Assembly (NCBI GenBank): GCA_964248365.1 | Contig: CAXTYC010000063.1 | Coordinates: forward strand, 1 to 13,230 | DNA: 13,230 nucleotides | Reading direction: 5' to 3' | Source: an uncultured Chroococcidiopsis sp. | Lineage (GTDB): Bacteria; Cyanobacteriota; Cyanobacteriia; Cyanobacteriales; Chroococcidiopsidaceae | Shown here: positions 1,124 through 9,093 of the stretch, one piece after another | Layout of the letters: each line of letters begins with the position of its first letter | Numbering within the stretch: the first letter of the stretch is position 1 | Made by a program: the position numbers and the translations under genes | Notes under the pieces: generated by a model | Databases searched by the model: none | Told to the model about the DNA's origin: nothing | Seen by the model: only the letters and a program-made list of their open reading frames with translations

Positions 1124-1990
1124 TTAAGAAGAAACTTTCAAACTGTAACGCTGGCACAAACTTTTAAATTTTTCGATCATGAGCAATCGCACATTTTCAG
1201 GCGCTACGATTACACAATCAGGTGCATATTGCATTACTTCCCTGATAAACCAAAATGTAATAGATACCCGCCTGACAACTCGCCGCACCCGCTGTGTATC
1301 TGGTAGCCATTCATTTAGCTTGTCTTCTGGTTTAGCTTGATAAGCAAAGGCTAAACCAGCAAACAGATGCATTTCTACATCTATCTCTGCCAAACTAGAA
1401 CGCCACTGGCCAGCAACAGGTAAAATGGCAGCATCTTGTATCCTGTCTAAACGCAAACTCCAATTATGCCTTAATTGTTCGACATCCAAGTTGCCATCTG
1501 TCTCTTCACACCAGCAATCAAGATATTGACGGTTTTCGTGTGGTGTAACCTTGGCATGGCGAACAGTAAAATCCCATACTCGATGTGCTGCATCTTGATA
1601 GCTGAGTTGAAAGGGTTGCTGGCGTAAGATGTAACGGTCTATTTCCAAACGCCAGTGGCGGGATAAGTTTCCTAAGAAACTTTCGATTTCACCTCGCAGA
1701 GGTATTAGTAGTTCGCTACGTTCAAGTAGTAATCGTGCGATTGTTTGTGCCTGCTCGTTTTGCCCAATGTCGCTAAACAAATGCATTGCACGGTAAAGCG
1801 CACGGATACGCGATTCTGACCAGTCATGATTTTTCCCAATAATTAAATGATGCTGGGCGATTGCTTCTATGAGCTTGGAGATATTCGGGCGATCGCCCCA
1901 CATCAGATTAAACTCCTGGGCTAGGTTTTCTAATTCAGCTTTGTCACGCTCGTGTAGAGACAAAGTTATCGATTGACCTTTTCGACTCAT
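1124..1990 (-). CDS. CRISPR-associated WYL-domain transcriptional regulator (N-terminal RHH-like, WYL, C-terminal WCX-like)
   Basis: 288 aa. The N-terminus SITLSL..DKAELENLA..NISKLIEAIA is ribbon-helix-helix-like. The WYL core reads F.LSYQDA...YLDCWCEE...SLRLDRI and the C-terminus reads WFIREVMQY...IVAPENVR. It is divergent from cas3, as is typical of cyanobacterial I-D loci. Confidence 0.88.
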   Translation of the reverse strand: MSRKGQSITLSLHERDKAELENLAQEFNLMWGDRPNISKLIEAIAQHHLIIGKNHDWSESRIRALYRAMHLFSDIGQNEQAQTIARLLLERSELLIPLRGEIESFLGNLSRHWRLEIDRYILRQQPFQLSYQDAAHRVWDFTVRHAKVTPHENRQYLDCWCEETDGNLDVEQLRHNWSLRLDRIQDAAILPVAGQWRSSLAEIDVEMHLFAGLAFAYQAKPEDKLNEWLPDTQRVRRVVRRVSITFWFIREVMQYAPDCVIVAPENVRLLMIEKFKSLCQRYSLKVSS

Positions 1991-2086
1991 TTTGTACGGA
2001 CACTTTATACAGTTATTTTATTGCTAATCTTTATTTTGCGTGCCAATATAGATTTTAACAAGATTTTACGGACAGTATTTAAGTAT
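1991..2086. promoter_or_regulatory. Divergent WYL/cas3 promoter region with two TACGGACA direct repeats
   Basis: AT-rich 96-bp intergenic region. TACGGACA occurs at 1995-2002 and 2067-2074, each close to one of the two start codons. Confidence 0.55.
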
Positions 2087-4267
2087 ATGTCCAACAATTA
2101 CACAATAACTCTCAAACCTGTCTATTCAGAAACAGTGCCAACACCAGAGGGCTTGAAAATGCCTAATGGGTGGTCATTGTCTTGGCATCAAGTTGAAACT
2201 TTAAAAGCGCTGCGAGATCCAAATATTGATGTAGTATTCAACGCTGGCATGACTGGCGATGGTAAAAGCTTGGCAGCTTATTTACAAGTGCTTCTAGGTG
2301 AATTATCCGCTATTGCGCTTTACCCGACAAACGAACTAGCCCGTGACCAAGAAATACAGATTAAAGGATATATTGAAGAATTCCAACCTAAAGAGAAACC
2401 TCGTGTAGCGCGACTTAGTGGCGCTGATTTAGAAATTTATGCAGAAAATGAAGGATTGAAAAAAGGTGCAGCGATCGCAACTCTCACTAACCAAAGAGAA
2501 GCATTGTTAACTAACCCTGATATTTTCCATTACTTACATTACGGTGCTTATATTATTCATGGTGATAGTCCAGATAAATTATGGGGAAGAATAGATAAAG
2601 ACTTTAACTTATTTATTTTCGATGAATTTCATGTTTTTGCGGCTCCCCAAATTGCCAGCATTATTAATACAATGCTGTTAATACGCTGCACAAACCGTCA
2701 TAAGAAGTTCTTATTTCTTTCAGCAACGCCAGATAAACATTTAATTAGCCGATTGCAAGAAGCTGGGTTTCGGTGTCAAGAAATCAATCCAATTGAGCAA
2801 AAAAAATATCAATTTCCTGAGACATTAGAAAAAGAACAGGAACTACAAGCGCAGAAATGGAGGCAAGTAGCGCGAGCAATTTCGCTGAATTTTATTCCTT
2901 TGTCACCTGATTTTAAAGCTTCTGAAACTTGGTTAAGAGAAAATAGTAATTTTATTTTGGCTCAGTTTAAGCAGTATCCAGGTAGTAAAGGTGCAATTAT
3001 TCTTAACTCAATTGCAGCAGTCAAACGCCTGACTCCATTTTTTCAAGAAATTTTACAGCCATATGGCTTGACCGTAGGAGAAAATACAGGACTATCTGGA
3101 AAAGGTGAAAAAGAACGCAGTCTTGCTGCTGATTTAGTCCTTGGCACGAGTACCATTGATGTTGGAGTTGACTTTAAAATTAATTTTCTGATTTTTGAAT
3201 CGTCAGATGCAGGGAATTTTATCCAAAGATTAGGACGTTTAGGAAGGCATGGTGGATATGAAAAGAATGGTCAAAAAATCAAGTTTGAGAACTTTACTGC
3301 TTTTGCACTGGTTCCTAACTTTTTAGTAGAGCGTTTATTTCAGCTAGAGCTTCCACCGTTAAAAGTTAATAGTATTTGCGATCGCCCCACTCTCCAACAC
3401 ATCATTAGAGAGCAATATCGCCAAATCAATGACTTTCATGGCTACTATCGCCGTTGGGGTGCTGTCCAATCATTTTGGCTGTATTACAAGTTAGGCGATC
3501 GCACAATTAAACAACAGTATGCCCAAAGCCGTGAGAAGTTTCAAGAAGCCTGTGAGCAAGTATTTGAAACAACTTTGAAGTCTGCGGCTGGACGTATTCA
3601 AGGATGGGCAAATGAGTGGAGACAGATATCTGGTAAAAAGGAGGGTAACCCAATTGCTGAGGATGCTGCTAGTTTTCGAGGCTTTAGCCCCTTGCAATGT
3701 GGTTTGTACGATTTAATGGCACAAAATGAGGCAGAGAGGTTTAAAACCTACGATCTACCAGGAATTTTAAGCAATTTAGAAATTGGAATGTGGACAGAAG
3801 CAGCGTTTATGCGAACTTTGAAAGAAACCGCCCAACGCACCGGACAACCAATTGCCAAAGGTAGATTTGCTCACTGTCTCGCATTTATGAAGTTGCGTTC
3901 CTACCGTGAGGAGCGGCTGAACTGGAAGTTTACCTACTCTAGCGACTTGCAGCCAATAGCTGATGCTTGGAAAGTTCAGGTTTTAACTGGTGTAGGAATT
4001 TGGCAACCAGACAATCAATGGATTGGTGCAATTAACAAAGAGTTGAAAAAGGAAGGTTTAGTTAGCTACCTGATACGCCGTCCAGTCGCAGAAGTGCGGA
4101 TGCGGCTACGGCTACCGATGCACTTTCAGATTTACCCAATTAGCGATCGGTATAGCTTTCATGATGCTACTGCACCGTATGCGATCGCTTTCGGTCACTC
4201 TGCGCTGCTACTGGATACCCTTGCCTATACGTTCAAAAGCAAAGGAGATGAGATATGGGTTGCTTGA
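2087..4267 (+). CDS. cas3: Type I-D CRISPR-associated helicase Cas3' (no HD domain)
   Basis: SF2 motifs: HQ (Q motif), TGDGKS, FDEFH, LSAT, TIDVGVD, QRLGRLGRH. No N-terminal HD domain. The start is placed at ATG 2087 (MSNNYTITL) because the tracked 1973 start overlaps the WYL gene. Confidence 0.93.
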   Translation: MSNNYTITLKPVYSETVPTPEGLKMPNGWSLSWHQVETLKALRDPNIDVVFNAGMTGDGKSLAAYLQVLLGELSAIALYPTNELARDQEIQIKGYIEEFQPKEKPRVARLSGADLEIYAENEGLKKGAAIATLTNQREALLTNPDIFHYLHYGAYIIHGDSPDKLWGRIDKDFNLFIFDEFHVFAAPQIASIINTMLLIRCTNRHKKFLFLSATPDKHLISRLQEAGFRCQEINPIEQKKYQFPETLEKEQELQAQKWRQVARAISLNFIPLSPDFKASETWLRENSNFILAQFKQYPGSKGAIILNSIAAVKRLTPFFQEILQPYGLTVGENTGLSGKGEKERSLAADLVLGTSTIDVGVDFKINFLIFESSDAGNFIQRLGRLGRHGGYEKNGQKIKFENFTAFALVPNFLVERLFQLELPPLKVNSICDRPTLQHIIREQYRQINDFHGYYRRWGAVQSFWLYYKLGDRTIKQQYAQSREKFQEACEQVFETTLKSAAGRIQGWANEWRQISGKKEGNPIAEDAASFRGFSPLQCGLYDLMAQNEAERFKTYDLPGILSNLEIGMWTEAAFMRTLKETAQRTGQPIAKGRFAHCLAFMKLRSYREERLNWKFTYSSDLQPIADAWKVQVLTGVGIWQPDNQWIGAINKELKKEGLVSYLIRRPVAEVRMRLRLPMHFQIYPISDRYSFHDATAPYAIAFGHSALLLDTLAYTFKSKGDEIWVA

Positions 4268-4268
4268 G

Positions 4269-4380
4269 GTTTCGATCCCTAATAGGGATTTTGGTTACTG
4301 ATTTACAGTAAGAGGGCGTAAGCCTTCAAGTACAGCGAAGGAAATTTCAATCCCTGATAGGGGTTCAAGTCTGCCTGATG
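4269..4380 (-). CRISPR. Degenerate mini-array (repeat-spacer-repeat) encoding a putative crRNA-like regulatory RNA
   Basis: Minus strand: R1 4380-4344 CATCAGGCAGACTTGAACCCCTATCAGGGATTGAAAT; 38-nt spacer 4343-4306 TTCCTTCGCTGTACTTGAAGGCTTACGCCCTCTTACTG; R2 4305-4269 TAAATCAGTAACCAAAATCCCTATTAGGGATCGAAAC. Both repeats keep the CCCT-N3-AGGG hairpin and an ATTGAAAC-like 3' end of cyanobacterial I-D repeats. The period is 75 nt. Confidence 0.85.
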
Positions 4381-4401
4381 TTTTATTGCCCTCCACTCTC
4401 A

Positions 4402-4407
4402 ATCATA
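4402..4407 (-). promoter_or_regulatory. Candidate -10 box (TATGAT) for the mini-array transcript
   Basis: TATGAT on the minus strand ~21 nt upstream of R1. No clear -35 box. Confidence 0.35.
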
Positions 4408-4455
4408 TAGGAGAAATTCACAAGATTTTTATGTAGTCTTTAATAACTGAATTTA

Positions 4456-4483
4456 TTGTCATAAAAATTTCGTATGCTATTCT
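4456..4483 (+). promoter_or_regulatory. Sigma70-type promoter for the leader/small-ORF transcript
   Basis: TTGTCA (4456-4461), 16 nt, then TATTCT (4478-4483) with an extended -10 TG at 4475-4476. Predicted TSS ~4490. Confidence 0.6.
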
Positions 4484-4492
4484 TTACTTGTT

Positions 4493-4521
4493 GGCATCAG
4501 CCTGCAAGGACAGAGAAGGAA
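4493..4521. promoter_or_regulatory. Target site of the mini-array spacer
   Basis: GGCATCAGCCTGCAAGGACAGAGAAGGAA versus 4315-4343 GGCGTAAGCCTTCAAGTACAGCGAAGGAA: 24/29 identical. Confidence 0.8.
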
Positions 4522-4541
4522 ATTCGTTGTACCGATGCTTG

Positions 4542-4611
4542 CATCCGTCCGACGCTACGCTTCTTACTGTAGTTGAACTGATACTCTCATCCGTCCAACG
4601 CAACGCTTCTT
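4542..4611 (+). repeat. Two 24-nt direct repeats separated by 22 nt
   Basis: CATCCGTCCGACGCTACGCTTCTT (4542-4565) and CATCCGTCCAACGCAACGCTTCTT (4588-4611), 22/24 identical. Confidence 0.85.
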
Positions 4612-4724
4612 TATGAAGCAAACATAAGTTCAAAATTTACAAGGAGGTTCCAAGATAATAAAAGATCTTTTGATTCCAATTTCTTAAGACACGATTCCTA
4701 AAACTTAAGTGGAGGTTCTAACTG

Positions 4725-4916
4725 ATGAACAATTATGTTCAGTTGGAACTCTTTGACCTGCGATCTTACACCTCAGAACAATCGTCTGTAACTGAGGAAG
4801 TAACTGAATTGGTCGAAGAGATTCAGCAATTAAGCAACTATAAGCAACTTGAACTTGATCTCTTTCGACAGCAGTTTTATAAAACTCCTTCCGAGTTATT
4901 TATATTAGCTGCATAA
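4725..4916 (+). CDS. 63-aa acidic peptide with duplicated NY.QLEL motif; putative beta-clamp-binding toxin
   Basis: SD GGAGG at 4711-4715, 9 nt before the ATG. Internal repeat NYVQLELFDL / NYKQLELDLF and C-terminal LAA. A hairpin follows the stop codon. The function is inferred. Confidence 0.7.
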   Translation: MNNYVQLELFDLRSYTSEQSSVTEEVTELVEEIQQLSNYKQLELDLFRQQFYKTPSELFILAA

Positions 4917-4924
4917 CTTCAAAA

Positions 4925-4957
4925 GGGGGCTAAGAACTCATTAATTCAAAAGCCCCC
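4925..4957. terminator. GC-rich stem-loop after the small ORF
   Basis: GGGGGCT (4925-4931) pairs with AGCCCCC (4951-4957). A T-run follows the stem only on the minus strand (AAAA at 4921-4924 on plus). Confidence 0.55.
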
Positions 4958-4989: not shown

Positions 4990-5233
4990 ATGGACGAACA
5001 AAAAATTTTGGAAAGAATCACTGTCAATCCTCAAATTTTTGGCGGTAAACCTATTATTCGAGGTCGTCGGCTAGCGGTTGAACATATTTTAGGGATGCTT
5101 GCAGCAGGAGATACTATCGAAACCTTGCTAGAAGCTTATCCCTGGTTAGAACGGGAAGATGTTGCAAGCCTGTTTAGTTTATGCGCGGAGGTTAGTTGGT
5201 CATGAGCGAATTGAACCATTATTGATAGAGTAA
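4990..5233 (+). pseudogene. DUF433-family antitoxin, frameshifted
   Basis: RITVNPQIFGGKPIIRGRRLAVEHILGMLAAGDTIETLLEAYPWLEREDV is a DUF433 signature. One extra base near 5163-5164 shifts the frame. The shifted frame continues QACLVYARRLVGHERIEPLLIE* to TAA at 5231-5233. Confidence 0.8.
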
Positions 5234-5238
5234 GCAAT

Positions 5239-5599
5239 GTGAAAATACTGCTAGATACTTGTGTCTGGTTTGGAGTGCGTACCAATTTACTTGCTGCTGG
5301 CTATGACGTAGTTTGGAGTGGAGATTGGTCAGAAGATTCAGGCGATGAGGAGATTTTAGCAACTGCTTACCGTGAAGGTCGAATTTTAGTAACGCGAAGA
5401 TATTGGCTTTGGAGAGTTAGCGATTGTACGGGGAAATCCTCATTGTGGTATTTTGCGGCTAGTTAATCTCAGTACTAAAGAGCAATCAATTGTTTGTGTG
5501 CGGGTGCTTCAGCTGTACGGTGATGAATTAGCGTCGGGTGCGATTGTAACTGCGGAATTAAGCAGAGTGAGAATTAGACCACCAGAGAATGATGGCTAG
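5239..5599 (+). pseudogene. DUF5615 PIN-like toxin, frameshifted
   Basis: MKILLDTCV...DEEILATAYREGRILVT, then the expected T.DKDFG motif is disrupted at ~5395-5405. Another frame continues FGELAIVRGNPHCGILRLVNL...GAIVTAELSRVRIRPPENDG* to TAG at 5597-5599. Confidence 0.8.
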
Positions 5600-5622
5600 A
5601 ACTCAACCAATAAAAAACTCAT

Positions 5623-5766
5623 ACCAATGGTGCGAGAAATTGACGGGCTTTAGTTTCTCTAGATTTTTCATTACTAACGCGCAAAACGGCAACCAATAGT
5701 TGCAGAAATTGACTGTAATCAATTATACAGGTTGAAAAACTGCCGCCATTGGTGGCAGAAATTGCT
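5623..5766. repeat. Three degenerate 22-bp direct repeats upstream of cas10d
   Basis: ACCAATGGTGCGAGAAATTGAC (5623-5644), ACCAATAGTTGCAGAAATTGAC (5692-5713), GCCATTGGTGGCAGAAATTGCT (5745-5766). Confidence 0.75.
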
Positions 5767-5802: not shown

Positions 5803-8800
5803 ATGGCTAATGGTGAAGATTGGTTATCAGGTGATTTTGGATTTGATGGTGATTCTTCACACCGCACTATTGAAACCAAAGGCGAATTATTAACACTCAA
5901 GCTATTACGTGAAGCTATTCAGGCTCAAAATCCAGATGACAAAGTAATGGCGGATTTTGCTGAGTATGTTTTACCAAATCTGTTGCAAATAGCTATTGGT
6001 GTCACTGCCAAAGGTGGTAAGTTTTTTGATGAAATCGATCAACAGCGAGAAGCCGAAGGTAAAACTAAAGTTAGGCGAGATAATGCTGCTGACCAATCAC
6101 TGAATACTCACTTACTGAATGGCTTATTTCCAGCTAATTTAATTGAGAGACGTTTAGAAAAACTCGATACTACCGTGCGGCGAGTGGTGAAAGAACGAGA
6201 ACGTCGATTAGTAATTGCTGGGTTTATTTTACATGATTTTGAAAAATTTCCTGATATACCAGAAAATTGCCGCAATTTATCGTTAGCAGAACATCGTCAA
6301 ATTATTGATGAAAAAGTTCGCCAGTTAGGACTTGATAGCTTTATCAATCCAGATAATCCAGAGGCTTATCGAGAGTATTTAGATGATTTGTTGTGCATGG
6401 TTTATAATGCACAACGACGCTGGGATACTAACTGGAATTTTTCTGAGTTTGGCTTGAATCCTGTTCTCAAAGACCGCACTCTTCGTAGTCTGTCTGATTT
6501 AACCTGTTTAGCTGATTCTCTCGCTTCAATTGTTAAACATCCCCAAGATGCAGAACATCCCAGACTACAAGAAATTATTCATAATCTTAGTGATGGACAA
6601 TTGAAATTTACCTATCACAGCATTGCTGAGAACCGAGGTGTTTTAACCAATGTTGTGAATAATGCTGTAATTCAAGCTTATACTAGCCTCAATACTGATG
6701 AGCATACATACTATGAACCTTTACTATATCTGCCAATAGGTGTAATTTACCTGGCTGCGCGTAATGCTCCTCCTATCTCATCAGAAGATTTACCAGACCT
6801 TGTAGTTAACAATATTAAATCACTTTGTGCTGACCAACTACGCCTAAGACAGACAGGATTTGGTCGAGATGGTAAAGGCATGAAATATGCCGAATATTAC
6901 AACTTATTTTTTGACTCTTTAGGCTTAATGCAAGTGGCTTTAGATGCGACGTTACGCATTTTAAGTTCTAGTAAACCATCTGTTGCCAAAAGTCGCAGTG
7001 AAAATTTAGCCAAGTTCCAACAACAAGGAGTTTTACCTGCTGAATTTGATTTTAATTTTGCTGATGATATCCGCATTGACCAAATAGCAGAATTTGGTGA
7101 TTTAGTAAGTCGCAAGATTTGGGATGAAACAGTTAATCGTATTGAAGCAGTTCGCAAAAAAGATAAAAAAATCCCAAAAATACCTGCTCTTGATTTAACT
7201 CATAAGGTAGTTGAATTCTGGAATTTAACAAAATATATCCCTCAAATTCACCACATTCAGCGCATTAATGAATGCTTGAAAGAAAACAAGTTAAAAGGCA
7301 ATACTGGCGGAGTCCCTTACGAATGGTATTATCTGGCAGCTAAGTATCTTGAAGAACATCCAGGCATTGAAGATGTACGGGAAACTTGCTTGCAAGTTAT
7401 TGACTACTTGACAAGATTAATTTCTCCAATACTTGCTCAATATAAATTACCTGATGGTTGGGACGATTTAAGGCAATGGGTATCACGAGTTTTCATGTTA
7501 CCAACCGCAAATCAACAGCCATCACCTAAAACTCAAACTGAGAATTTTCTCAAGGAGTTAAATAATTACAATGCTGCTAAAAAAGCTGGACGGGGACGAC
7601 AATTAATCTGTTCAATTTCTCATTCTGCTTACACAGTAACTGAGCAGATGGAATCAGCAGTTTTGTTTACACCGCAAGTTTATACCAACAAACAAATGCT
7701 GGGTGGTTCTAATGCCAAGCGCAATATTTCCAGTATTGCAAGTGTAGAAATGATGCTCAGACAAATTTTAATGAATCAAACTCAAGCAGTCGGTAAACGA
7801 TTTGAAGATGGTAAATATCGTTATCTCTACTTTTATCCCACTTATTACTTTACTCCAGAAACTAACAAGTTTTTACAAAAAGCTTACAGTGGAATTGCTC
7901 AGACTCGGTTTGATACGAGTGTCCGCAATCATTTTATCACTAAGGATTTACAAGCTCATTTAGCAAAGAAAGACTATCAAAGCGTCGATAGTTTTTTGAT
8001 TGATGAAAACTTAGAAAACGAGAAAGACCGTACATTTAAGCTTTCTTATCCTGAAGACCAACCTTTAACATTCTACTTCATGGCGCTACCACCAGGACGA
8101 GAAAGCACTGATACGGAATCTTGGGTAATGCCTAGTTGGCTGGCGTTTGCTTTTCCAATGATTTTAGATGTTAAAACTGTAGTTTCCGAGTCCCCAATTC
8201 CACCTTTTAATGATGGTGCTGAATTTGAAGAAAGCGTCTTTCTTGATAGTGCGCCTCATGCTTTCCGTGCTTTGGTAAGACGCGATCGCTTCCGGCTTGA
8301 CTACATCCTTAAAGGTTGGAATGAAAACGGTACTCAATACCCAGCACCCTTAAATGTCTTAACTGCTGCTTATGCGATTCATTTAGATGTGAATGCGCGA
8401 CAAGGTAAGTCTGGTTATGATGCCAACTGGGGAAGATTTACTGAACTGGCAAAAGATTTTGAAACTAGTCCGCTATACGTCTTTTCTTATCTCAATCGTT
8501 GGGTTCGTAACCAGGGAGTAGAAACGGCACGAATCGAGAAAATTCGGCTTTATACGTATCATTTTTATCCTTGTTTTGACCCTTATGTGAAATATGACAC
8601 TGCTATGGAGCAATTAATTGTGGAAGAAAAATCAAGTCTAAATCACCCTAAGAAGTTAACAGATTTGTACCGAAAATTTTATAGAGCTAATAAGCGTTAT
8701 AATCCCAAATCTAATGCTGTTTTGAAACCAATTGATATTGCGGCTGAAACTATACTCAAAGCTGACTTAAGTGTCTTTCATGGTGAAACATTAGTTGTGG

Positions 8801-9093
8801 TTGTTGCAGCAGAAGTTTTTAAGCTAATGGATCGCGTTCATTCTTCTACTGCTGAAGGACGCTGGGTAATAAGTAAAAGGGAGGAAGAACGCCTAGCTGT
8901 TCTAGATTTTGCACAGTATTTTGTAGTGGAGGTATTTGAGAAGTCTTTTGCAGGCGATCGCGCTCGTTTAGCAGGTCGTCAACTAAACTTAATTCGAGAT
9001 ACCTGCGAGTTTCTTTATCGTTTAGAAGACGACAAAGAAAACTCAGCTAGAAATGAACAATCTACCGAATCTACTGATGATGACAATCAGTAA
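5803..9093 (+). CDS. cas10d: Type I-D large subunit Cas10d/Csc3 with N-terminal HD nuclease domain
   Basis: 1096 aa. DQSLNTHLLNG...LHDFEK...LADSLAS HD motifs. SD GGAGG at 5792-5796. Lies directly upstream of csc2/csc1. Confidence 0.93.
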   Translation: MANGEDWLSGDFGFDGDSSHRTIETKGELLTLKLLREAIQAQNPDDKVMADFAEYVLPNLLQIAIGVTAKGGKFFDEIDQQREAEGKTKVRRDNAADQSLNTHLLNGLFPANLIERRLEKLDTTVRRVVKERERRLVIAGFILHDFEKFPDIPENCRNLSLAEHRQIIDEKVRQLGLDSFINPDNPEAYREYLDDLLCMVYNAQRRWDTNWNFSEFGLNPVLKDRTLRSLSDLTCLADSLASIVKHPQDAEHPRLQEIIHNLSDGQLKFTYHSIAENRGVLTNVVNNAVIQAYTSLNTDEHTYYEPLLYLPIGVIYLAARNAPPISSEDLPDLVVNNIKSLCADQLRLRQTGFGRDGKGMKYAEYYNLFFDSLGLMQVALDATLRILSSSKPSVAKSRSENLAKFQQQGVLPAEFDFNFADDIRIDQIAEFGDLVSRKIWDETVNRIEAVRKKDKKIPKIPALDLTHKVVEFWNLTKYIPQIHHIQRINECLKENKLKGNTGGVPYEWYYLAAKYLEEHPGIEDVRETCLQVIDYLTRLISPILAQYKLPDGWDDLRQWVSRVFMLPTANQQPSPKTQTENFLKELNNYNAAKKAGRGRQLICSISHSAYTVTEQMESAVLFTPQVYTNKQMLGGSNAKRNISSIASVEMMLRQILMNQTQAVGKRFEDGKYRYLYFYPTYYFTPETNKFLQKAYSGIAQTRFDTSVRNHFITKDLQAHLAKKDYQSVDSFLIDENLENEKDRTFKLSYPEDQPLTFYFMALPPGRESTDTESWVMPSWLAFAFPMILDVKTVVSESPIPPFNDGAEFEESVFLDSAPHAFRALVRRDRFRLDYILKGWNENGTQYPAPLNVLTAAYAIHLDVNARQGKSGYDANWGRFTELAKDFETSPLYVFSYLNRWVRNQGVETARIEKIRLYTYHFYPCFDPYVKYDTAMEQLIVEEKSSLNHPKKLTDLYRKFYRANKRYNPKSNAVLKPIDIAAETILKADLSVFHGETLVVVVAAEVFKLMDRVHSSTAEGRWVISKREEERLAVLDFAQYFVVEVFEKSFAGDRARLAGRQLNLIRDTCEFLYRLEDDKENSARNEQSTESTDDDNQ
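8620..9093 (+). CDS. cas11d: Probable Cas11d small subunit translated from an internal start in cas10d
   Basis: In-frame GTG at 8620 preceded by GGAG (8607-8610) and an AT-rich spacer, giving 157 aa. The context GGAGCAATTAATTGTG resembles the cas7d RBS GGAGATTAATTATG. ATG 8605 is an alternative start. Internal Cas11d translation is established for I-D systems. Confidence 0.65.
   Translation: MEEKSSLNHPKKLTDLYRKFYRANKRYNPKSNAVLKPIDIAAETILKADLSVFHGETLVVVVAAEVFKLMDRVHSSTAEGRWVISKREEERLAVLDFAQYFVVEVFEKSFAGDRARLAGRQLNLIRDTCEFLYRLEDDKENSARNEQSTESTDDDNQ

Follow-up and report, generated by a model that had tools for sequence, protein, structure and literature searches.

The closest described counterpart of the locus analysed here is CrePA of type I-F in Acinetobacter baylyi. 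According to the available text of Shu et al. (bioRxiv 10.1101/2024.01.05.574328) and of a review (PMC12737573), a repeat-spacer-repeat guide gene located behind cas3 represses the gene for a small protein inside the cas locus. Type I-D mini-arrays that are associated with cargo genes have also been published, as the accessible portion of another study describes (Shmakov et al., bioRxiv 10.1101/2023.03.03.530964). The toxins SocB (from the SocAB system of Caulobacter) and RipA (from Streptococcus pneumoniae) act on the hydrophobic pocket of the replication clamp and are subject to ClpX-linked control, as reported in the excerpted text of PMC12795458. For type I-D, the published protospacer-adjacent motif (PAM) is GTN (PMC9123187; available part of PMC10212523). 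The I-D Cascade needs GTN for double-stranded DNA, and it binds single-stranded RNA at 11 nM irrespective of the flanking sequence (PMC9123187). Whether the targeting of single strands by type I-D serves a physiological purpose is listed as open in the accessible sections of the review by McBride et al. 2023 (PMC10212523).

The window, which is the entire stretch of DNA that was analysed, is a whole 13.2-kb contig bearing a type I-D locus. We consider it somewhat more probable than an even chance that this locus includes a CrePA-like, Cascade-repressed gene for a toxin that would compete with polymerase for the beta clamp. Family scans identify a WYL/WCX gene, cas3', cas10d, cas7d (csc2), cas5d (csc1), cas6 and cas4, and the end of the contig reads by eye as a gene that we take to be cas1. 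The type I-D helicase gene cas3' is located at 1973–4267 (TIGR03158, E 5e-133) and cas10d at 5803–9093 (TIGR03174). Both are on the plus strand, as are all features given below except the mini-array. The Cas10d protein encoded here is without the N-terminal QLSLF-type tail that is common in its relatives. An RNA-library contig spans positions 4136–4413, which cover the end of cas3' and the mini-array, and it carries no strand or level information; no such contig covers the peptide gene discussed below. The sequencing runs hold shares of 0.04–0.11 of the stretch, and two of these runs resemble one data set.

Several other features accompany this locus. A 236-aa ORF fragment at 68–778 exhibits weak similarity (27–39%) to hypothetical proteins of eight cyanobacterial plasmids, and thus the locus may sit on a mobile element. 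Three 31-nt direct repeats with 71–74% identity and spacings of 69 and 53 are located at 5614–5766, just upstream of cas10d, and are possible operator or promoter repeats. The same genome carries, on contig C47, a 44-repeat array with a repeat related to that of the mini-array. This array (29574–32827) reaches the end of its contig, no recognisable cas gene is found directly before it, and its connection to the cas genes of the window is unassembled.

The mini-array is a repeat-spacer-repeat, crRNA-like gene that occupies positions 4269–4380 on the minus strand, inside the cas locus and behind cas3', and it begins 2 nt past the cas3' stop codon. The repeat lying 5' of the guide (4344–4380) was recognised by its similarity to the array of C47 and by its fold, wherein a Cas6-type hairpin is followed by the 8-nt handle AUUGAAAU. 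The mini-spacer, or regulatory guide, is at 4306–4343, and a second, more degenerate repeat similar to that of the C47 array is present at 4269–4305. The orientation was deduced from the layout of hairpin plus handle, and the plus-direction reading was rejected because it would leave the 5' end of the guide unmatched. A small hairpin (4314–4326; GGC, 4 nt, GCC) is formed by the spacer's PAM-distal portion, and related guides keep it with variation. The two-repeat mini-array encodes one minus-strand guide, which would be processed by Cas6 and loaded into Cascade. Use of this guide by a type III system was ruled out since no type III RAMP gene was found in this genome (G000, 99.97% complete). 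Among the ten genomes checked, none was found in G040, G514 and G023 (73% complete) either, and the remaining six have a match.

The peptide gene is located at 4725–4916 and encodes 63 amino acids from an ATG start codon, as supported by the ORF list and by homologues. A Shine-Dalgarno (SD) sequence, GGAGG, lies 9 nt upstream (4711–4715) and is also present in homologous loci. The preliminary description had pointed to two clamp-like motifs situated 35 residues apart, and both were confirmed. Motif 1 is a pentapeptide clamp-type QLELF at residues 6–10 (4740–4754), which is followed by a conserved D-L-x-x-Y, and motif 2 is of the hexapeptide type, QLELDL(F), with QLELDLF at residues 41–47 (4845–4865). 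Among the 22,388 short ORFs of this genome (40–100 aa, six frames), QL.LF occurs in 44, and the peptide ORF is the only one of these that also ends in AA. The long ORFs of the same genome exhibit 24 occurrences of QL.LF per 1.37 million residues. This rarity of the motifs in combination with a terminal AA argues that the ORF exceeds chance.

Judged by sequence comparison, the peptide is a member of a real, unannotated cyanobacterial family that comprises 142 proteins. This set leaves out two repeat proteins (P0059 and P0070), and one further count also leaves out P0058. The first search with the single sequence recovered eight proteins with 54–100% identity in which both motifs and the terminal LAA are invariant, and proteins 81–89% identical to the peptide exist. 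Searching 1.84 billion representatives with a profile produced 66 matches, and a 62-sequence profile identified 122 clusters within 493 candidates. These clusters are without Pfam domains, and every named cluster member is annotated as hypothetical or uncharacterised. The pentamer (Q-aliphatic-x-L-F) is present in 132 of the 142 proteins, the hexamer (Q-aliphatic-x-L-x-L) in 136 and both in 127, with a spacing of 35 residues in 80 and of 33–41 in 126, and these family-wide counts are partly circular because profile searches favour motif-bearing proteins. The first eight single-sequence matches and the codon test described below are less circular in this respect.

The motifs are also the residues conserved among the homologues. 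Mean column conservation in 62 sequences is 0.93 for motif 1, 0.87 for motif 2 and 0.87 for the last two residues, versus 0.30 for the linker and 0.28 for the tail. When 14 distinct coding sequences are compared, the ratio of extra synonymous codons to extra residues is 4:2 for motif 1, 11:2 for motif 2 and 5:0 for LAA, versus 21:36 for the linker and 12:36 for the tail. Pooled, there are 20 synonymous changes versus 4 in the motifs and tag, and 33 versus 72 in the linker and tail. These substitution patterns indicate that the motifs and the AA tag are under purifying selection, and that the linker is free while its length is near-fixed.

The two motifs had been described as joined by an acidic, probably helical linker, and this picture holds only for the individual member. 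A low-confidence AlphaFold2 model of the peptide (mean pLDDT 67, pTM 0.19) contains a helix at residues 24–35 and no tertiary fold, with both motifs outside the predicted helices. As a family trait, a conserved acidic helical linker was rejected, since 43 of 58 linkers carry a proline beyond their first eight residues and the net charge ranges from -8 to +2. Length is kept, and chemistry is not.

Representatives of the family are patchily distributed. A survey across the phylum found it in 4 of 401 genomes, one of the four being a false match, and 16 of 301 genomes from one bacterial family carry it. The named relatives are cyanobacteria. Phages and plasmids yielded no homologue, nor did viral contigs, where none of 83 pattern matches qualified. 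Likewise, no family for the peptide was found over the cut-off in Pfam, or in PHROGs, NCBIfam, PADLOC, Rfam, PDB sequences (best E 0.22) or the ESM Atlas (best 0.75). Locus L109 is a truncated copy, loci L008 and L025 were examined and are not family members, and the weak genome matches L005–L007 and L009 are outside the set.

Homologues do adjoin mini-arrays, in that a I-D repeat is found within ~650 nt upstream in all 32 distinct peptide loci. The cas3' gene is seen in 30 of these, and the other two are contigs of 1.2 kb. The gene order is cas3', the minus-strand mini-array, a promoter, a leader of ~125–240 nt, the peptide gene, a hairpin, and then either a variable toxin-antitoxin (TA) pair or cas10d. 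An independent census covered 80 regions that precede cas10d and are the better-scoring part of 102 genomes with a match. In these, a mini-array repeat is present in 58 and a peptide match in 6, all with the repeat. In the window, the gene for the peptide is followed by a DUF433/DUF5615 pair (4990–5599). This pair was ruled out as the regulated cargo because it varies among loci and because both of its genes are frameshifted here; it is a variable cargo rather than the conserved one. Such pairs, or nucleotidyltransferase/HEPN-like pairs, recur in relatives at this place and also upstream of cas3'.

The motifs themselves suggest what the peptide might bind. In the accessible text of bioRxiv 10.64898/2026.05.27.728225, QLELF is a measured clamp-binding motif identical to that of Bacillus subtilis Pol I, and QxxLxL is a known second form, with the C-terminal QVELEF of Pol III in the hexapeptide class. 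The same text describes position 3 E, which the peptide has, as binding less tightly than the consensus S/D. The beta clamp has two identical binding sites (available portion of PMC12309361). The host encodes a normal clamp, DnaN, and its DnaE carries QVSLF at residue 938. The segments DGHRL, PxYxxLIP and MPVQ, which we take to be those forming the cleft of DnaN, are invariant in 27 cyanobacterial sequences. Thirty residues could reach up to ~100 angstrom when extended, and the clamp ring measures ~80 angstrom. This reach makes two-pocket binding geometrically possible, and the fixed motif spacing fits it. Granted that the peptide binds at all, the chances that one molecule would occupy both clefts are, in our estimation, about evenly balanced.

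The peptide ends in LAA (4905–4913), a probable ClpXP degradation tag. ClpX recognises a terminal LAA, and the tmRNA tag of this host ends in VLA. A terminal AA is found in 123 of the 142 family members versus 73 of the genome's 22,388 short ORFs, and 12 members are without an AA or VA end.

Upstream of the peptide gene there are two places that resemble targets of the guide. The first (site 1) is represented in the window by a decayed remnant at 4436–4455, in which the GTC PAM (4436–4438) is kept and the seed is broken. In relatives, this site is located on the plus strand 27–30 nt before the extended -10 box, and its GTC is followed by matches at 13–16 of the first 17 guide bases. Pairing stops after approximately these 17 bases. 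Site 1 is intact in 15 of 21 loci and in 13 of 15 in a second, partly overlapping set, and it has decayed in the window, L010–L013 and L058 (6 of 21). The 21-locus set consists of the 19-locus set used for site 2 plus L014 and L060. The flanks are GTC or GTT, in agreement with the published I-D PAM; when the 43 C47 spacers were used to derive the PAM empirically, only chance matches of 16–17 nt emerged. A GTC PAM with a partial promoter match is like the pairing pattern of CreA/CreR.

The second site (site 2) is located at 4490–4521, where the transcript is predicted to begin, and would make up its first 32 nt. Its flank is AAT, not GTN, and it is the mRNA strand that the guide would pair with. 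In the window, 24 of 30 positions match, including a perfect match at guide positions 1–7. This is the best match in the 5.58-Mb genome besides the spacer itself, and the next best has 21. In family loci, site 2 starts 6–10 nt past the -10 box and its flanks are AAT, AGT, GAT, AAG or ATT, never GTN.

Mismatches at site 2 occur with a striking regularity. Guide positions 6, 12, 18, 24 and 30 match in 7, 7, 0, 2 and 0 of 19 loci, respectively, and in 6, 5, 3, 2 and 1 loci of the 15-locus set. The other positions through 29 mostly match in 14–19 of the 19 loci, with positions 1, 7, 8, 13, 22 and 26 as exceptions. Such mismatches at every sixth guide base imply the Cas7 backbone. There are also positions, such as 16, 17, 19 and 20, at which the type of matched pair changes together in guide and site 2. 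When off-period transitions are sorted by whether they are compatible with G-U pairing, the ratios in peptide loci are 34:6 for site 2 and 2:7 for site 1. The same contrast is weak in other loci (26:6 and 11:4), and neither the G-U counts nor the match counts are independent because the loci are related.

This PAM-less antisense pattern recurs with other guides and other cargo genes. Our census found an antisense PAM-less site with at least 19 of 30 matches in 25 of 55 mini-array loci, versus 0.9% of 660 shuffled guides, and none of the 25 has a GTN flank. In the 19 of these sites that are in peptide-free loci, the every-sixth positions match in 17% of cases versus 80% elsewhere, and positions 1–3 match in just 11, 4 and 4 loci, such that the seed is often broken. 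A full-length match with neither a PAM nor a seed is as expected of an RNA target. This suggests RNA-level control by the I-D Cascade, and we judge that site 2 is probably an RNA target. It seems unlikely that it is instead a single-stranded DNA target within the open promoter, and equally unlikely that it reflects an inherited likeness.

Two further observations concern the sites. In nine loci of a helix-turn-helix (HTH) type (L103, L113, L117, L118, L139, L145, L155, L161 and L162), the antisense site is located 400–465 nt behind the repeat and downstream of the HTH gene, and two sites of one guide may there control two different genes. In locus L111, the guide is of the peptide type and its two target sites are intact; no peptide match was found there by HMM.

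The predicted promoter (4456–4483) consists of TTGTCA, 16 nt and the extended -10 box TGCTATTCT. A consensus scan for promoters found 5 versus 3.8 expected and is weak alone; the position of the extended -10 box is conserved among relatives. From the start site deduced in this way, a 235-nt 5' leader (4490–4724) is predicted that contains an inner helix and an SD-covering hairpin. A consensus fold of 12 short leaders also includes a hairpin that covers the SD. In an alternative rod-like structure, the 5' end of site 2 pairs with the same anti-SD strand. In this rod, 85.7% of cells are paired, versus 35–55% in slid controls and with none of 500 shuffles as high, though two-sided changes are missing from its two 5'-most helices and these same sequences served to draw the structure. 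The leader of the window also contains a 46-nt tandem duplication (4526–4617) and a second GGAGG without an ATG at about 4646, which suggests a recent leader duplication in this lineage.

In 16 of 21 modelled loci, opening the ribosome-binding site (RBS) cost over 0.5 kcal/mol more once site 2 was blocked. Compared with shuffled sites, the effect exceeds all shuffles in 4 of 13 loci (4 of 10 when the window, L010 and L058 are set aside). For the window, L010 and L058, blocking leaves RBS opening unchanged (+0.5, -0.1 and +0.3 kcal/mol, within the shuffles), and the leader of the window folds no better than its shuffles (z -0.61). On this modelling, a leader switch is plausible for the relatives and is unsupported for the window. 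There, with site 1 decayed and no effect of site 2 on the RBS, a lethal gene would be only loosely held by the modelled routes.

Immediately after the peptide stop codon there is a hairpin (4925–4957; -14.9 kcal/mol) with a weak U tail, which probably marks the end of the transcript. It was not called by a terminator scan of the window, and a hairpin is found at this place in all 20 loci folded (the window and 19 others). As regards feedback of the CreR type, the hairpin follows the peptide stop and read-through into cas10d is possible.

Taken together, these features could operate as follows. Cascade would bind the ~16-nt promoter site that is flanked by GTC and block transcription; because this match is too short, cutting would not be licensed. 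Cascade would also bind the PAM-less site at the first ~32 nt of the mRNA, and in most relatives this would free the anti-SD strand to cover the RBS. Both steps draw on conserved pairing, and in the window just the second site survives. Peptide that leaks through would be cleared by ClpXP via its terminal AA. When Cascade is lost or is blocked by an anti-CRISPR, the peptide would accumulate and dock QLELF and QLELDL in the hydrophobic clefts of DnaN, probably both of one ring. It would then displace DnaE and other clients and so stall replication in the host as well as in any invader that depends on the clamp. In its fullest form, this proposal has one I-D guide locking the gene twice, at promoter DNA through a PAM and at mRNA without one. 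The gene would then encode a self-destructing plug across both clamp clefts, and Cascade would ride the clamp via the QLSLF tail of Cas10d. We regard this complete picture as tentative, and as more doubtful than not.

The Cas10d tail provides a reason to consider a role other than toxicity. Among the Cas10d N-terminal tails of loci L091–L170, a strict clamp-type motif is present in 59 of 80 and a looser pattern in 67 of 80, with QLSLF occurring 40 times, and the layout is a short basic K-rich stretch, the motif and an acidic linker. This arrangement suggests that Cascade docks on the beta clamp. The peptide might thus be a non-toxic, clamp-binding regulator, in which case it would compete briefly with the QLSLF tail, or with other clients of the clamp, and thereby tune how Cascade is retained at forks, being regulated along with the cas genes through CreR-like feedback. 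A degron suits a transient factor, and in L016 and L018 cas10d lies directly after the peptide gene, where the downstream gene otherwise varies from locus to locus. The peptide slot is, in other loci, occupied by HTH proteins of 62–75 aa, coiled-coil-like proteins of 76–107 aa and other small ORFs, none with a Pfam family over the cut-off. The commonest is a small HTH protein that matches a cas-linked model of PADLOC (E 9e-28). Because such regulators share the slot, it is not toxin-only, and this keeps the regulatory reading alive. However, the peptide retains both motifs where the Cas10d tail has been lost (the window at 5803–5860, L003, L010, L011, L013 and L058), which argues against a pure decoy role. 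The hairpin behind the peptide stop in every locus folded and a double lock that exceeds the needs of a tuning factor also count against a regulator, which we consider unlikely. So does the similarity between peptide and tail: they align only over 13 columns at and near the motif, and on this ground the idea that the peptide arose from the tail of Cas10d was rejected.

The slot is diverse in other ways. Several further unannotated small-protein families are found in it (L091, L092, L093, L101, L105, L112, L138, L144, L159, L164 and others), including HTH proteins of 62–75 aa, some ending in LAA, coiled-coil-like proteins of 76–107 aa and a basic family of 74–83 aa. Many of these carry their own PAM-flanked and PAM-less guide sites, and they are candidate toxins or regulators. 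Locus L180 is a recombinant in which the peptide is under a different, HTH-type guide with its own 16-nt GTC site on the opposite strand. At 960–1700 of this locus, on the minus strand, the first residues of an HTH-type ORF are fused to the clamp-motif peptide.

Less probable than a regulatory function is the possibility that the QLxL motifs bind something else, for example a Cas protein or a surface specific to cyanobacteria, and that their likeness to clamp motifs is incidental. Conservation extends beyond the known motif to D11, Y15, Y39 and P48, and our literature search found no measured clamp preferences for cyanobacteria. The start QLxLFDLxxY is also carried by an unrelated, ribbon-helix-helix-like and DNA-binding-like protein of ~70 aa that is outside any cas locus (L025; G362, contig C28, 9555–9692). 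Against this, the most conserved positions of the peptide coincide precisely with the ones on which clamp binding depends (1, 2, 4 and 5 of the pentamer; 1, 2, 4 and 6 of the hexamer), and both known motif forms occur together in nearly all members, as counted above.

We think it quite improbable that this copy is a decaying relic of a functional family, or that site 2 is an inherited likeness to the source of the spacer that is kept by leader structure rather than by Cascade. The broken site 1, the frameshifted DUF433/DUF5615 pair and the lost Cas10d tail could be read as signs of decay, as could a leader that folds no better than its shuffles, and pairing within the leader rod could conserve site 2 by itself. 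However, the ORF, the SD, the motifs and the tag are intact, close homologues exist, and site 2 of the window keeps its perfect start and high overall match. Leader structure also cannot explain every-sixth mismatches across unrelated guides. The least likely alternative is a clamp-removal adaptor, toxic only with its tag, whose two motifs grip the clamp while the AA tail is offered to ClpX so that the clamp is pulled off DNA or degraded; the frequent AA end lies at a near-constant distance from motif 2 and clpX is present in the genome, but several members end directly after motif 2 without a tag, and a binder that attaches non-covalently and carries a terminal tag should usually be the one that is destroyed.

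If the clamp-directed toxin is real, then DNA replication joins the targets of CRISPR-repressed toxins, and the peptide would be the smallest natural clamp inhibitor, with a two-motif design relevant to clamp-directed antibacterials. It may halt replication once CRISPR defence is disabled. The mRNA lock, if true, would be a natural use of the binding of single-stranded RNA by type I-D Cascade. The PAM-less site makes the question of a single-stranded role for type I-D testable, through natural guide-target pairs, covarying bases and named cyanobacterial species. The Cas10d tail suggests a link between Cascade and the replisome, of which no description was found in our literature search, and tail and peptide together would couple both surveillance by CRISPR and its fail-safe with the replication fork. 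That full-text search, which covered few subscription papers, also found no account of a CRISPR-repressed clamp-binding peptide, of a dual DNA/RNA target of a I-D guide or of a clamp motif in Cas10d. The accessible part of 10.64898/2025.12.20.695498 held nothing relevant.

Several known systems share individual elements with this locus. A gene preceded by a structured leader with a complementary small RNA has a likeness to type I toxin-antitoxin systems. These typically have a long leader, a hairpin that covers the SD and a small RNA complementary to the 5' part of the leader. Here, unlike in such systems, the RNA is a CRISPR-type guide with every-sixth mismatches, and the peptide is acidic and soluble-looking rather than a membrane peptide. 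SocB and RipA depend on protein antitoxins as far as their available descriptions go, whereas the present peptide would be held by an RNA guide with Cascade and has a built-in tag and two motifs, SocB being set apart by its description. There is no conserved partner gene at the peptide loci that could represent an adjacent ClpXP-adaptor antitoxin of the SocAB type. In Pol I, Pol III alpha, Pol IV and Hda, the clamp motif tethers an enzyme, as the accessible portions of the sources state (bioRxiv 10.64898/2026.05.27.728225; PMC12309361), whereas here there is no enzyme, just two motifs, a spacer and a tag.

The loci of Shmakov et al. have the same architecture in the available text, with a mini-array between cas3 and cas10d, oriented opposite to cas3, and a target in the likely promoter upstream of variable TA cargo. 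Their cargo as described there comprises TA genes and regulators and their targets are PAM-flanked, whereas here there are a peptide and a PAM-less site. The words 'clamp' and 'small protein' are absent from this portion of the text, and its Figure 6 or Supplementary file 6 may mark one of the two sites or the ORF. Likewise, type I-D, cyanobacteria, the clamp and DnaN are absent from the accessible part of the CrePA preprint (bioRxiv 10.1101/2024.01.05.574328). In the available material, CreP is a KilAC protein of 103 aa; it is described as blocking cell division, as co-purifying with FtsZ and as being under control that is transcriptional only. No KilAC domain was found in the peptide with Pfam, PHROGs, NCBIfam or PADLOC.

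The present family is CrePA-like at the family level, yet it is not a member of the CreP family. As in the available account of CrePA, there is a guide gene behind cas3, and a small gene within the cas locus has a promoter that the guide matches in part next to a PAM, this match being found in the family but not in the window. Unlike CrePA, the system is of type I-D, its product is a motif-only peptide with a putative degron, and its guide has a second, PAM-less site.
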